A DNA stretch of 64,000 bases from Shigella phage MK-13 (MK509462); one strand, 5' to 3'. Shown: positions 43,358 to 48,626, numbered from the stretch's first letter. Program-made: numbers and translations. Notes: generated from the sequence alone by a model not told the origin.

Positions 43358-43933
43358 TCAGCCTTTGAAGTTGATCGGTTTCTGAACCCCAGCGTCGAAC
43401 GCGGCCTGGGTACGGGTATCGCTCACCACCTGACAGGTCTTGTCAAGATCGATGCGCGGGTAGCCAAACATGCCAGCGATCAACGAACCAGGGAACTGAG
43501 CCAGCTTGGTTTCGTACATTGCGCAGATATCCAGCTTCTTGGTCTGACTGATGCGGAATTCATCACGCCCAGAACTGATCACCACCTGGATCTCTTTGTA
43601 CAGGCTGGAATCGAACTGAATGTTCTGCTCCTGGATCCACTGCATAACAGCCTTGGAACCATCAGCGCCATAACGCCCTTCGAACGTGCCTTTGATCACT
43701 TCCTTCAGGCCGTCTTTGTACATGTCAGGAATCTGCGCCGTCTCCTGAACTTTGAGCGTGTAGTTGCTCAGGTAGTTCTCTGAGTCTTTGTTGAACTTCT
43801 TGACCTGTTGCTCAGTGCGGTTGAAGTCGTTGAAGTAGCTGATGACTGTGCCGATGCCGACAATCACCATGCCCAGCAAAGCCAAACCAACGATCCAACC
43901 TGTTGCAATACCCTTAGATTGAGACATTCTCAC
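43358..43933 (-). CDS. LemA-like membrane protein
   Basis: N-terminal TM helix then YFNDFNRTEQQVKKFNKDSENYLSNY...; overall resemblance to the LemA family; inference. Confidence 0.35.
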   Translation of the reverse strand: MRMSQSKGIATGWIVGLALLGMVIVGIGTVISYFNDFNRTEQQVKKFNKDSENYLSNYTLKVQETAQIPDMYKDGLKEVIKGTFEGRYGADGSKAVMQWIQEQNIQFDSSLYKEIQVVISSGRDEFRISQTKKLDICAMYETKLAQFPGSLIAGMFGYPRIDLDKTCQVVSDTRTQAAFDAGVQKPINFKG

Positions 43934-43945
43934 TTCCTCTTTTGA

Positions 43946-45061
43946 TTAAAAATTAAACGGATAACGACGACGGCCACCATTGTACTCCATTCGCTGCAAT
44001 ATGAAAATTGCGGTGAACGGCAAGCAGCCCAGCAGAACAACAACCACAACTTCCCAGGTCTTGAGTTCCCGCCACTTCAGGTACTCCATTTCCTTCATCT
44101 CAACGCGGTTGTAGCCTTTGGTGATGTTGGCGACAACGTCTGTCATGACGCCGATACCCATATCATGTCCAATCAGGTCCATACCGTTGCGGGAGTGAAG
44201 TTCACGGTTGTGCATACCATCAGCGAACGAAGTGCTCTTACCCCAATTGATCTTCAGGTCTTTGCTGATGTCGGTGACGACAATGACGTCGTTCTTTTTA
44301 CCGCCATCCCATGCATAGACCAAGCCCTGGAAATATTCAACTGGCTGACCGGATGTCACAACCCAGACGATGTTCACCTGCTTGGCCGCGCCCAGCTTCT
44401 TCAGAACATCATTCAGATAGTCGTTCCAGTATGTGGTTGGCAAAGCCAGGCCGGACACGTTCAGGACACGAGTGACACGATAGTAGTCATAGACCTCAGG
44501 GTACTTGGGAATCTTGTCTTTGAAGCGCTCAGCAAACTGCTGGTCTGAGCGGGAGAACAGAGAGTCCTTGTTGCCCAGCACATAGTTCATGTAGGAGTGC
44601 TCACGGGCGGCTGGCTCACCAATCTGAACCTGCGCCCAGCGCGGCGGCTGGCCAAGACCACGGCGATCAATGCGGTCAATCGTCAGATTACCAACAGTCG
44701 TCAGCACATCCCAGTCCACGTCATACGAATGCTCATAGCAGGTGCTGCAATGGCGAGTACGGGTACAGGACTTGCTGCTACCGGAACCGGAGCATGATGT
44801 GGTGTAGTAGCAGTTGCACTGATACGAGTGCTCGCAGCTCACCTTATTGCGCTCCTTGCCAGTGACGTATCCGTTCAGGATCTCAACGTCCCCTGAACTG
44901 CCGAGGGAGAACGCAGCATAAGCCCCGACCTGAATCAGACAGGACAGCACCACCACAATCGCCGTCGCAATCAGAGTCTCTTTCGGCTCATGGGTCTTGC
45001 GGTGGTAGACCACAAACAGGATGGCCAGTATCAATGGCACACCAAACAGGAGATAGATCAT
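43946..45061 (-). CDS. Cys-rich membrane protein (TM helices at both ends)
   Basis: 371 aa; N-terminal TM segments, Cys-rich block SCEHSYQCNCYYTTSCSGSGSSKSCTRTRHCSTCYEH, C-terminal TM helix. Confidence 0.45.
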   Translation of the reverse strand: MIYLLFGVPLILAILFVVYHRKTHEPKETLIATAIVVVLSCLIQVGAYAAFSLGSSGDVEILNGYVTGKERNKVSCEHSYQCNCYYTTSCSGSGSSKSCTRTRHCSTCYEHSYDVDWDVLTTVGNLTIDRIDRRGLGQPPRWAQVQIGEPAAREHSYMNYVLGNKDSLFSRSDQQFAERFKDKIPKYPEVYDYYRVTRVLNVSGLALPTTYWNDYLNDVLKKLGAAKQVNIVWVVTSGQPVEYFQGLVYAWDGGKKNDVIVVTDISKDLKINWGKSTSFADGMHNRELHSRNGMDLIGHDMGIGVMTDVVANITKGYNRVEMKEMEYLKWRELKTWEVVVVVLLGCLPFTAIFILQRMEYNGGRRRYPFNF

Positions 45062-45444
45062 AACTCACCATCCACGAGTTGTGCCTTGGTCATCCCAAGG
45101 AGTTGATCTTTGTACTCAGGCTTGGCACCGTTCTTTAACAACAGATCCCAACGCTCTTCATGGTACTGTGGGTCCAGCGCTTCATCAAATGTGATGTGAT
45201 GGCGGAACATAACAGTTGCCACTGAATGGACGCAGTGAGCGATTGCGCGCTTCAGAGTGCGTTCTGGCGTAATGTGCTTTTTATATTCAATGCCCATCAG
45301 ATCCAATTCTTTGAAAAGATAGGAGAATGACAGGGCGCCTTGTGAATGCAGCACGACGATAGTGGCTTTCTTAGGGTGGAGTGTACCATCCGTTTCTTTC
45401 ATGAACAGATCGTACAGGTACTGTTTGTATTCGGACTGTGTCAT
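45058..45444 (-). CDS. Hypothetical protein
   Basis: 128 aa; ATGA coupling with the upstream gene. Confidence 0.4.
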   Translation of the reverse strand: MTQSEYKQYLYDLFMKETDGTLHPKKATIVVLHSQGALSFSYLFKELDLMGIEYKKHITPERTLKRAIAHCVHSVATVMFRHHITFDEALDPQYHEERWDLLLKNGAKPEYKDQLLGMTKAQLVDGEL

Positions 45445-45653
45445 TTAGATTCACCCATGACGATAACGGAAGCGCCATTACGGAAGCGCCCATATTCAGG
45501 CGGAAGACCTTCGCGAACTTTCTGTGCGAACGCTTCAGAAACCACCAGACGGCCAACCAGAGGGTCTTTTTGTTTCGGAGTGGACTCAAAGTAATCACCA
45601 AAAGTCGCTTCCATATCCAGTAGGGACATATCTTCAATTCGTTTCATTGCCAT
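45441..45653 (-). CDS. Hypothetical small protein
   Basis: 70 aa ORF. Confidence 0.35.
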   Translation of the reverse strand: MAMKRIEDMSLLDMEATFGDYFESTPKQKDPLVGRLVVSEAFAQKVREGLPPEYGRFRNGASVIVMGESK

Positions 45654-45677
45654 GATGTATTTCCTTGCAAAAAGAAA

Positions 45678-45712
45678 GGGGAACGGGCTAATATTAACCC
45701 ATTCCCCTTTAT
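45678..45712 (-). terminator. Hairpin (ggggaacggg...cccattcccc) with T-runs
   Basis: Long GC-rich stem; TTTCTTTTT follows on the minus strand. Confidence 0.45.
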
Positions 45713-45736
45713 TGAAGAACGCAATCGCAATCAGAT

Positions 45737-45903
45737 TACTTTTTCTTCAGCTCGTCCAGTTTGGCTTCGATTTGTTCCAGGATGTCTTTACCCTTCTGAA
45801 CAATCACTTCACCGTCTTGCGCGTGTTTGCGGAATACCAGAGCGCCAGCTACGAAGCCGACAACCACACCAGGAAGCGCATAAACCAGCAGATCTTGTAA
45901 CAT
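45737..45903 (-). CDS. Small membrane protein (about 55 aa)
   Basis: Hand translation MLQDLLVYALPGVVVGFVAGALVFRKHAQDGEVIVQKGKDILEQIEAKLDELKKK; below the track size cutoff. Confidence 0.3.
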
Positions 45904-45939
45904 GATAATATCCTCACTTTATAGGTGAGGATATTTATA

Positions 45940-47172
45940 TCAGCGTTTCAAGAGTGCCATGAGGTTGACGCTGCTGGGCTTCGACTTGTCTTCAGGCTTG
46001 ACAGCTGTCTTCGGGCGTTCACACACCTCAGATGGTTCCCAGCGCGTACCCTTTTGCAGGTGCCAAATGTGCAGAGGGATGCCAGTATCAAAGAACACAG
46101 GCATCTTCCACTTCTGGACGCCTGGAACGTGCCCTGCAGGAGCCTTTTCGCATAACAGGGTATCTGGTAACCAGAGTGAACGGGCTTCCCAGAGCGCTGC
46201 ACAGGAGTACTCCGGCCAGATGCGTTCCATGTAGTCGATCTCATCCCAGGTACGCTCGGCATCCCACCCAATGTAACGGGTATTCTTCTCACGGAAGAAC
46301 TTCTTCAGCCAGCATGCACCGGAGGTTTCAAAGTTCAGGCGATTGATGAACGTCAGATGCCCGAACTCAGCCACGCATTCCTTGAACGCCTGTTCAAGGT
46401 CGGCCTCAAGGATGTCACACTCTTCATCAGTGATAGGACAACCATTGATCTTTTTCTTCCCATGCTTGGTCACCCAATCATCACGGTTGGACAAGAACGC
46501 CGCGCCGTTGCGGTTGGACTCGCTGCCATCACGATCACGCAGCATGAAGCCAGGGACGTCGATATCCCACATATTGCCAAACACCATGTTCAGAGCTTCC
46601 AGGAAGTTCCAGGCGCTCAGGCGGCCGAAGTATTTCCAGGACATCGCCGTTTCCCACAACTTAGTGAACTGGTCGCCCTGGGGCTTGGTCTCCAACATCG
46701 GTCGGAATGCTTCCATCTGGGAGCGCCCTGCCAGCCAGTCAATGTAGGACTGAACACATGGGATCATCTTCGACTTGCGATAGCGGCAGTCGGTATCGAA
46801 GCGCATGCGCTCAAAGTTCAGGTTGTACCAATCAGAGAAGCGCTGCATCTCTTCTTTGGACTGAGGGGGTACAGGGAACTCACTGTAGATTGTCCATGGA
46901 CCGATGGCGTTGTAACAGCAGCCCCAAAGGAATGCCATCCAGATTTTGCGCTCGATCTTCTCAAGCTGCGTGATGCCTTCTGTGACTTCGATCGCATAAT
47001 CCATCAGACGCATCTGCTGGTTGTGCTCTTCGGTGTAGGACAGCGCCTCCACCCAAGCCTTGAGCAGGTACATGCGATTCTCAGGCTTGCGATAATCAAC
47101 AGCCAGGTCAATCGGGTACTTCCATTCAGCCGGGGGTGTATAGCCCGTCGGCATTTTAGATAGATGCGTCAT
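45940..47172 (-). CDS. Large conserved-looking hypothetical protein (Trp/Cys-rich); candidate enzyme of the nucleotide/DNA-modification module
   Basis: 410 aa with no recognisable motif; sits between the kinase/HAD genes and the small-protein cluster. Confidence 0.45.
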   Translation of the reverse strand: MTHLSKMPTGYTPPAEWKYPIDLAVDYRKPENRMYLLKAWVEALSYTEEHNQQMRLMDYAIEVTEGITQLEKIERKIWMAFLWGCCYNAIGPWTIYSEFPVPPQSKEEMQRFSDWYNLNFERMRFDTDCRYRKSKMIPCVQSYIDWLAGRSQMEAFRPMLETKPQGDQFTKLWETAMSWKYFGRLSAWNFLEALNMVFGNMWDIDVPGFMLRDRDGSESNRNGAAFLSNRDDWVTKHGKKKINGCPITDEECDILEADLEQAFKECVAEFGHLTFINRLNFETSGACWLKKFFREKNTRYIGWDAERTWDEIDYMERIWPEYSCAALWEARSLWLPDTLLCEKAPAGHVPGVQKWKMPVFFDTGIPLHIWHLQKGTRWEPSEVCERPKTAVKPEDKSKPSSVNLMALLKR

Positions 47173-47708: not shown

Positions 47709-48626
47709 TCACCCCTTCTTCATCAGGTCAAGGAGAGAGCGCGACGCTGCCTTCGGTGCTTCCGGCTGGGCACTCGCCTTGGTTTTAGTTTTAGATGCCT
47801 TCTGCGGCTTCTCAGGCACTCTGTGCGCCAAAGGATCATTACCGCCGACCTCACGGGTCATCGGATTGGTTTCGCAGTAGGCGTAGAAGTCTTTGGTGTG
47901 CATGTCAACATCGCGCAGTTCAGAGCGTGTCTGATGACAAATCGCATTACCCACAACCCACAGCGGGGCGTCGTATGGGAGCACCGCCAACTCGGACTGC
48001 TGTTTGGTCGTGAACTCCTGGGTGTTGGCCTCTGGTGCTTTATACAGGATATCCTGTCCGCTGTAATCATCAACAGCCACAGTGAAGCCCAGCGTCAACA
48101 TTTCGGTCTTCGATTTCTCAAACTCCTTGGAGTAAGATTCGTTGCGCGACCAGCCGGAGTCCCCTGCTTCTTTACCAGAGCGACCACGGATGCGGGCATC
48201 GTACTGATAGCGGTCGGGGTACGCAAAGTACAGCAGCGCCAATGATTCAATCGGATAATTCTTGAACATCCACTCAGGACGCCATTTGTCCGACAGCATG
48301 AGGGGTTCGCCCTCGCACACCAGAGTGTAACCCTGCGCCAGCCAGCCCTTGACCAGATCACGGGCGATATCACCCGAGCCTGTGGCAGCATGAATGGCGT
48401 CCATGGAAGTCCAGGAAGCCAGGCCGGATTTGTTGGACACAGTGTACTGGCCGACGAAGATCAACTTCAGCTCTTCGAATTTCAGGCCAAACGGGCGCGT
48501 CTTATCACCAATGGTGTAGGTGAGTTCGGTAGGCTCCAGCTTCGTACGGAGCCATTCGATGAACTGTACAACACGAGTACCCTTACCCGTGCCGCTGGTT
48601 CCTTTGATTACGATGATCTTTGCCAT
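47709..48626 (-). CDS. P-loop kinase with adenylate/NMP-kinase-type Walker A (GTSGTGKGT)
   Basis: N-terminal KIIVIKGTSGTGKGTRV resembles the GxPGxGKGT P-loop of NMP kinases; 305 aa. Confidence 0.45.
   Translation of the reverse strand: MAKIIVIKGTSGTGKGTRVVQFIEWLRTKLEPTELTYTIGDKTRPFGLKFEELKLIFVGQYTVSNKSGLASWTSMDAIHAATGSGDIARDLVKGWLAQGYTLVCEGEPLMLSDKWRPEWMFKNYPIESLALLYFAYPDRYQYDARIRGRSGKEAGDSGWSRNESYSKEFEKSKTEMLTLGFTVAVDDYSGQDILYKAPEANTQEFTTKQQSELAVLPYDAPLWVVGNAICHQTRSELRDVDMHTKDFYAYCETNPMTREVGGNDPLAHRVPEKPQKASKTKTKASAQPEAPKAASRSLLDLMKKG

Follow-up and report, generated by a model that had tools for sequence, protein, structure and literature searches.

The gene pair and its distribution

We analyzed a 64,000-nucleotide (nt) stretch of Shigella phage MK-13 (MK509462), hereafter the window, and focused on two neighboring genes on its minus strand, one for a LemA-like membrane protein and one for a membrane protein of 371 amino acids (aa), here called the partner. 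Both open reading frames (ORFs) were found where the preliminary description had placed them, the LemA-like ORF directly 3' of the partner ORF at a spacing of 12-18 nt (Table 1). As judged from the comparisons given below, the pair is very probably a diverged form of the bacterial LemA-TPM module. Both genes are far beyond chance, because the LemA-like protein matched its PHROG family with E 1.4e-86 and the partner matched with E 9e-164, and hundreds of homologues exist. The listed LemA-like ORF starts from GTG 43933 and encodes 191 aa, but the true start is likely ATG 43927, giving a protein of 189 aa, since a ribosome-binding site (RBS) precedes this ATG, its Met is conserved almost without exception among the aligned family members, and this start is the one given in deposited records. 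The window belongs to an Ackermannviridae genome, which over the 2.5 kb around the pair shares 97-98% identity with Salmonella phage SW16-7 and Shigella phage Ag3 (genus Agtrevirus).

Table 1. Features of the LemA-like and partner genes and of the region directly upstream, in window coordinates
Feature	Position	Strand	Remarks
LemA-like gene (PHROG 1383)	43358..43933	-	listed ORF
LemA-domain homologous region, aa 26-162	43448..43858	-	all-helical; ends in Y…FP…FG(Y/F) motif common to LemA
Motif G-R-Y-G-A-D-G-S-K-A, aa 86-95	43649..43678	-	invariant; family-specific, not in canonical LemA
LemA-like single transmembrane (TM) anchor, about aa 12-33	43835..43900	-	one TM in 57/57 members
RBS AAGAGGAA of LemA-like gene	43934-43941	-	suitable spacing before ATG 43927
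Partner gene, 371 aa (PHROG 2087)	43946..45061	-	predicted three TM helices and large periplasmic ectodomain (Cys/His-rich beta domain, TPM-like domain)
Partner TM helix 3, aa 335-358	43988..44059	-	hydropathy, AlphaFold2 (AF2)
TPM-like alpha/beta domain, about aa 178-330	44072..44530	-	invariant W-x-G-G-K-K-N-D-V motif
Beta-hairpin-rich ectodomain, aa 57-160	44582..44893	-	AF2 strands; contains Cys/His cluster
Cys/His cluster C76-x-H78-x3-C82-x-C84-x5-C90-x8-C99-x5-C105-x2-C108-x2-H111	44729..44836	-	column conservation 83-100%
Partner TM helix 2, aa 26-54	44900..44986	-	hydropathy, AF2
Partner TM helix 1, aa 2-20	45002..45058	-	hydropathy, AF2 helix; N-terminus predicted outside
Two small upstream genes, 70 aa and 128 aa (PHROG 5047)	45058..45653	-	ATGA stop/start overlaps with each other and with partner gene
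Intrinsic-terminator-like hairpin, strong	45675..45710	-	16-bp stem and T-run; directly upstream of four-gene string

Conservation of the pair was examined for loci fetched by the partner protein alone, consisting of the best 80 of 202 confirmed IMG/VR loci and of 39 loci, the only ones detected, from 185,579 species genomes (mostly metagenome-assembled genomes). In 109 of these 119 loci a LemA-like gene accompanied the partner gene, without exception in the same orientation; among the 10 loci lacking it, four end at a contig edge. The intergenic gap was about 19 nt in the median and 60 nt or less in 95 of the 109 paired loci. LemA-first order was observed in three loci and an inserted gene in a few. 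The partners represent 58 lineages at 55% identity, and no other gene within 3 kb of the pair recurred in more than three of these lineages, indicating a self-contained two-gene cassette. The two-gene membrane module proposed in the preliminary description was thus supported. The proposal that the module had been captured, if taken to mean that it was acquired recently, was not: the GC content of the pair (0.50) equals that of the rest of the window, and the family is large, old and phage-centred.

By tblastn, the small gene was detected in at least 500 isolated phages, including Ackermannviridae, Aeromonas T4-like phages, Vibrio ICP1, Rak2-like and Agrican jumbo phages, Acinetobacter phages, Delftia phiW-14, Sinorhizobium phiM12, Lak megaphages and Bacillus phage G. 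Presence of the pair was confirmed with hidden Markov models (HMMs) in ViI, Ea35-70, ICP1, CBB and phage G. Exhaustive HMMER search for the LemA-like family yielded 1,456 clusters at 50% identity (E<=1e-3), indicating a large and discrete family. Many residues are invariant across phages of Gamma-, Beta- and Alphaproteobacteria, Bacteroidota and Bacillus. The copy in Bacillus phage G (L129, 2992-4951), arranged in the bacterial order as LemA-like gp142, small gp143 and partner gp144, indicates that the cassette is also present in a phage of a Gram-positive host. One metagenomic protein of 553 aa (P0260) reads as a partner (1 to about 365) joined to a LemA-like protein (368-552); it is topologically compatible and could be either a Rosetta-stone fusion or the result of a lost stop codon.

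A large bacterial replicon of Variovorax sp. WDL1 (L003/L098, 4772-6591) also carries a copy of the pair. The neighboring genes gave no PHROG matches, and no recognizable phage genes were located nearby; this copy may lie on an uncharacterized mobile island, not a prophage. T5orf172 and helix-turn-helix genes are situated close to it. In Pectobacterium phage CBB (L128, 1-3555), a TelA-family ('toxic anion resistance') gene is located two genes upstream of the pair. The gene between TelA and the CBB pair, annotated 'putative metallopeptidase', was considered as an echo of bacterial LemA-HtpX and rejected, as the product is an Rv2179c-like 3'-5' exoribonuclease.

Relationship with bacterial LemA and TPM proteins

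The preliminary description had called the small protein LemA-like and had proposed a Pfam search as the check. This search fell short of the cut-off: the single-sequence scan for LemA (PF04011) gave 13.7 bits (E 0.055, partial match at 127-160) against a gathering cut-off of 26.2 bits. Single-sequence scans against Pfam, NCBIfam and PADLOC gave sub-threshold noise only, no precomputed Pfam domain was found on 120 homologues, and plain HMMER did not link the family to canonical LemA at threshold. Profile comparison, in contrast, supported the assignment. With hhalign, the phage family aligned with 39 genuine PF04011 proteins at Prob 96.0% and E 4.1e-9 over 137 columns, that is, almost the entire soluble domain. 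When the 57-sequence family profile was compared with 177,635 PDB sequences, the top match was the LemA protein 2ETD (E 0.016), in two collinear stretches. LemA was also the most recurrent Pfam family over the 57 members (8 of 57 at E<=1, best 3.1e-4), and with the LemA HMM 37 members outscored all 1,140 shuffled controls, the top score being 28.3 bits. The architecture of LemA, a single N-terminal TM segment followed by a helical domain of about 150 aa, was matched: all 57 members have one TM segment, lengths are similar (180-200 aa for the phage proteins, 186-208 aa for true LemA), and the AF2 model is all-helical (predicted local distance difference test, pLDDT, 84.7). These findings strongly support the view that the small protein is a diverged member of the LemA superfamily, though not PF04011 by Pfam's own criterion.

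For the partner, the preliminary description had suggested a search for TPM or DUF domains. A TPM-like domain was indicated by its fold and by weak Pfam matches in relatives: TPM was the most recurrent weak match among partners, at E<=1 in 13 of 52 (best 1.8e-4) and in the right region, as in partner P0157 (18.1 bits at residues 207-263). The predicted domain has the alpha-beta-alpha sandwich fold of solved TPM domains. Pairing of bacterial LemA with a membrane-anchored protein, also stated in advance, was observed in all four bacterial loci sampled (Thermotoga, Thermincola, Sporosarcina and Thermoanaerobacterium), in each of which the gene for a TPM membrane protein immediately follows LemA. 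These TPM neighbors are 238-268 aa in length (TPM E 1e-28 to 1e-47); besides a signal or TM segment at the N-terminus, they have one further TM helix and a tail rich in Gly. Given this constant adjacency, the phage pair can be considered a variant of a known operon. Since both a LemA profile match and conserved pairing were detected, the assignment stands on both points that the preliminary description had named as decisive. In Thermincola (L134, 4001-7812), genes for NfeD and a FloA flotillin-like protein come next after the LemA-TPM pair in the same orientation, which is a membrane-organization context.

The phage pair resembles the bacterial operon, as represented by Thermotoga TM0961/2ETD, in the tight same-strand linkage of a single-TM LemA-type gene to a gene for a membrane-anchored TPM-fold protein, in the predicted extracytoplasmic location of both soluble domains, and in the placement of the TPM domain between two membrane anchors. 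It differs in several respects. The gene order is inverted, with the partner first in at least 103 of the 109 loci and LemA first in bacteria and in phage G. The phage partner carries an additional N-terminal TM hairpin and a Cys/His beta domain of about 100 aa, and lacks the Gly-rich tail. Both phage proteins fall under the Pfam thresholds, the LemA signature residues are replaced in the phage protein by GRYGADGSKA, and the phage family is confined almost wholly to phages.

Some of the results weigh against this assignment. Fold searches gave no confirmation of a 2ETD-like fold and are uninformative for this helical protein. Among the LemA invariants (YN after the TM segment, LQRR..LIPNLV, GTENRI, AR..YN and FP…F), only the N after the TM segment and the Y…FP…FG near the C-terminus recur in the phage proteins, while other residues stand in place of the signatures QRR, GTENR and R..YN. 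A different set of residues is invariant in the phage family (R87, G89, G92, S93, A95 and E102 in 57 sequences), and the LemA segment aligned by hhalign to GRYGADGSKA is not conserved. Loss of the signature residues together with gain of an own motif suggests that the biochemical activity may differ from that of LemA. For the partner, the MK-13 protein itself gave no Pfam match to TPM (PF04536; gathering threshold 22.1 bits), hhalign against the four bacterial TPM proteins gave Prob 10% (E 0.003) with an alignment that is too shallow, and the equally too shallow four-sequence TPM HMM gave no signal above shuffles. Separately, the segment GADGSKA also occurs, letter for letter, in Desulfovibrio cytochrome c-553 (2DVH; E 0.93); this was attributed to chance, since the CXXCH motif is absent.

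Predicted membrane topology and the Cys/His domain

The single TM segment of LemA-like proteins is flanked on the N side by 2.6 positive and 0.1 negative charges and on the C side by 0.9 positive and 1.4 negative charges. This bias, a basic N-flank and an acidic C-flank, was observed in all 57 members and likewise in canonical LemA, and points to an N-in/C-out orientation. Two cysteines of the LemA-like protein are both present in 23 sequences and both absent in 34, with no sequence carrying only one; this all-or-none pattern suggests a disulfide bond and, with it, exposure to the periplasm. As for the partner, the preliminary description had correctly noted TM helices at both ends, though by hydropathy and AF2 the helices number three, two of them N-terminal. 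The N-terminus is devoid of basic residues (family mean 0.09 Lys/Arg), the loop YHRKTHEPKE between TM1 and TM2 is basic (family mean 2.0) and, from its charge, presumably cytoplasmic, and TM3 is followed by the basic tail …GGRRRYPFNF (family C-tail mean 4.0). Of 52 partners, 47 have three TM helices with basic residues both in the TM1-2 loop and in the tail, and this charge pattern would put the ectodomain on the periplasmic side. Taken together, the charge bias and the cysteines that vary jointly suggest that both soluble domains are periplasmic, and a heteromeric complex of the two proteins at the outer face of the cytoplasmic membrane is probable.

The dense Cys-rich block noticed earlier in the partner is real, with seven Cys and two His within 36 residues, and all nine positions are intact in 41 of 52 family members. 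The cluster lies within a beta domain for which AF2 predicts strands at 57-74, 79-91, 98-109, 114-121, 124-128 and 150-158; Pfam and PDB sequence searches gave no match for this domain. Across the partner family, residues of the cluster are lost in pairs (C84/C105, C90/C99 and H78/H111), and in divergent relatives the cluster is reduced or absent while the remaining architecture is retained. From this pattern, the cluster is probably a structural staple of the beta hairpin, through disulfides and/or a metal site, and no catalytic centre. The most divergent loci (L122-L126), examined as possible 'bridge' sequences, showed the cluster to be dispensable and gave no Pfam match to LemA or TPM. The stapled beta domain, without detectable relatives, may represent a new periplasmic domain.

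Possible roles during infection

The names given to the small protein in public records are 'hypothetical', 'LemA', 'LEMA protein' and 'virion structural protein'. In the record of Salmonella phage ViI (L132, 3733-5427), the LemA-like gene is annotated as 'virion structural protein' and the partner gene as 'host lysis protein'. The structural label has been propagated by RefSeq to many phages, ViI, LIMEstone1, CBB, Ea35-70 and phage G among them, and PHROG 1383 is placed in the category 'head and packaging'. Taken at face value, the structural labels would make the LemA-like protein a constituent of the particle. Primary evidence for the label was sought in the AG3, LIMEstone1, Agrican357virus, phAPEC6 and Sajous1 papers and none was found, and literature searches on LemA plus TPM and on phage LemA returned nothing on phage-encoded LemA. 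The virion proteome of LIMEstone1 ends at ORF 174, whereas the gene is located near the end of this 201-ORF genome; none of the six bands analyzed in the AG3 paper is the LemA-like protein; and LemA is absent from the paper on the CsCl-purified Sajous1 proteome, although records of the same group use the name. A TM anchor, a putative periplasmic disulfide, a three-TM partner and absence from most ICP1 isolates are all unlike a structural protein, and contamination with membrane vesicles could explain detection in virion preparations. Packaging in the virion is thus extremely improbable, and the small gene is often mislabelled as 'virion structural protein'.

To our knowledge, no function has been established for LemA or for most of the TPM proteins, widespread as they are. 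TPM proteins have been reviewed as taking adaptor or assembly roles for membrane complexes (PMC13456599, PMC11237479). Phosphatase or ATPase activity is reported for some TPM members only, and the metal/phosphate-binding sites are not conserved even across solved TPM domains (PMC13456599). Comparators of the adaptor or assembly type are AtTLP18.3/Psb32 of photosystem II, mycobacterial AscF, Bacillus subtilis YdjH with PspA, and Caenorhabditis elegans MOLO-1; the phage domain differs from these in that a novel Cys-rich domain is attached to it and a LemA-like protein always accompanies it. In Flavobacterium columnare, lemA and a TPM gene are co-induced by membrane perturbation (PMC13236525). 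As TPM proteins act as adaptor or assembly factors or as partners of the PspA stress system, and as lemA and TPM respond together in F. columnare, we propose that the phage pair may maintain membrane or envelope function during infection. Resting on analogy, this functional part is put forward tentatively and with more doubt than confidence; for the combined statement, that the two genes are a phage form of the LemA-TPM membrane module of bacteria and maintain the membrane or envelope during infection, we consider the balance to be even.

In the proposed mechanism, the single-pass LemA-like protein and the three-pass TPM-fold partner would form a complex at the periplasmic face of the cytoplasmic membrane. 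The complex would be made in infection and would keep the host cytoplasmic membrane, or its energy-transducing or envelope complexes, working at a time when host protein synthesis is shut off while a large phage requires a long, energy-rich latent period. The cassette would then be an accessory fitness module and not an essential replication or virion gene. A more specific version, in which a periplasmic adaptor preserves the assembly of respiratory or envelope complexes of the host and the energized state of the membrane after host shut-off, in both Gram-negative and Gram-positive hosts, is by analogy conceivable, yet decidedly improbable. Cyanophage psbA, which sustains photosystem II, offers an analogy for such a membrane-maintenance device. 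The proposal has to be set against the structural labels of the small protein in RefSeq and PHROG, and against the fact that physical interaction, periplasmic location and expression time of the pair are what we infer. Besides, as LemA itself has no established function, the statement that the pair works like LemA-TPM conveys little mechanism.

The accessory nature of the cassette is indicated by Vibrio phage ICP1, in which it was detected in 8 of 82 ICP1-type genomes, all of them DRC-2017-type records. In isolate 2017_DRC_87 (L127, 2950-5377), the cassette and a resolvase-like gene (PF00239, E 7e-10) are inserted between ORF40 and ORF39; presence as an insertion in a minority of genomes indicates that the cassette is accessory and horizontally mobile. 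The same features would suit superinfection exclusion or outside protection, a role raised as a possibility in the preliminary description, in which the complex would stop a second phage from injecting its DNA or penetrating the cell wall, or counter membrane-acting abortive infection. Periplasm-facing inner-membrane proteins of virulent phages, such as T4 Imm and Sp, represent the classic anatomy of exclusion, and the pair is like them in comprising small inner-membrane, periplasm-facing proteins of a virulent myovirus. Its position is also compatible with exclusion: in MK-13, rIIA lies shortly downstream of the pair in the same orientation, and the ICP1 insertion site lies within the gp28-gp52 block, each gene of which is classed as early (PMC7567579 Table S1), although the transcriptome strain ICP1_2006_E (L137) is devoid of the cassette and the early call means position in the block only. 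Exclusion proteins, however, are usually small, fast-evolving and restricted to one phage group, whereas the invariant residues of the pair span phages of unrelated hosts. No sequence or fold relationship with Imm or Sp was found, and the pair is far more conserved and widespread, with homologues in a bacterial chromosomal operon. The PADLOC defence models gave no meaningful match: the LemA-like protein hit only LeoBC (E 2.7e-4, 18 bits, over the TM/helical N-terminus), and the partner hit none. Such deep conservation fits membrane homeostasis better than a typical fast-evolving exclusion protein, and we regard exclusion as unlikely.

A role in lysis timing, with the pair as part of a holin/antiholin or lysis-inhibition apparatus, is suggested by the name 'host lysis protein' in the ViI record and by the nearby rIIA. 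A membrane protein with a large periplasmic domain also recalls the T4 holin T and antiholin RI. The evidence behind the ViI label could not be traced, however, and no holin family was matched except for weak Phage_holin_3_2 in one of 52 partners. T4-type late promoters were not enriched upstream of the pair, being detected at one of 112 distinct loci against a background of 0.7%, and no lysis gene recurs beside it. ICP1 has separate genes for its holin and antiholin, teaA and arrA (gp137/138), and most ICP1 isolates lyse without the pair. Lysis control is therefore very unlikely.

The diverged LemA-TPM pair is thus one of those accessory cassettes that have a relatively wide distribution among large virulent phages and jumbo phages. 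Since ICP1 genomes naturally vary in having or lacking it, and since these phages are genetically tractable, a phenotype for LemA-TPM can be approached directly; if the membrane-maintenance proposal is true, this would be the first tractable phenotype for the LemA family, the function of which has been unknown since 1996. As Ackermannviridae are candidates for phage therapy, correction of the label also matters for genome curation in that field.

As to the surroundings in MK-13, the pair forms the end of a four-gene string with overlapping stops and starts that follows the terminator-like hairpin. The two small upstream genes are probably in one transcript with the pair; they are restricted to Ackermannviridae and lie outside the conserved cassette. 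Scans for sigma-70 promoters and terminators around the pair remained at chance level, this single strong terminator excepted. The hairpin is preceded by an ORF for a 55-aa single-TM protein (45736-45903, minus strand), itself preceded by a T4-type late promoter motif TATAAATA (45932-45939), and the next gene begins just 21 nt past the hairpin. Shortly upstream of the pair, on the minus strand, are genes for an amino-acid:DNA transferase (45940-47172; PF18724, E 2e-61) and a 5-hydroxymethyldeoxyuridine (5-hmdU) DNA kinase (47709-48626; PF18747, E 7e-161), which represent the thymidine-hypermodification pathway typical of ViI-like phages.

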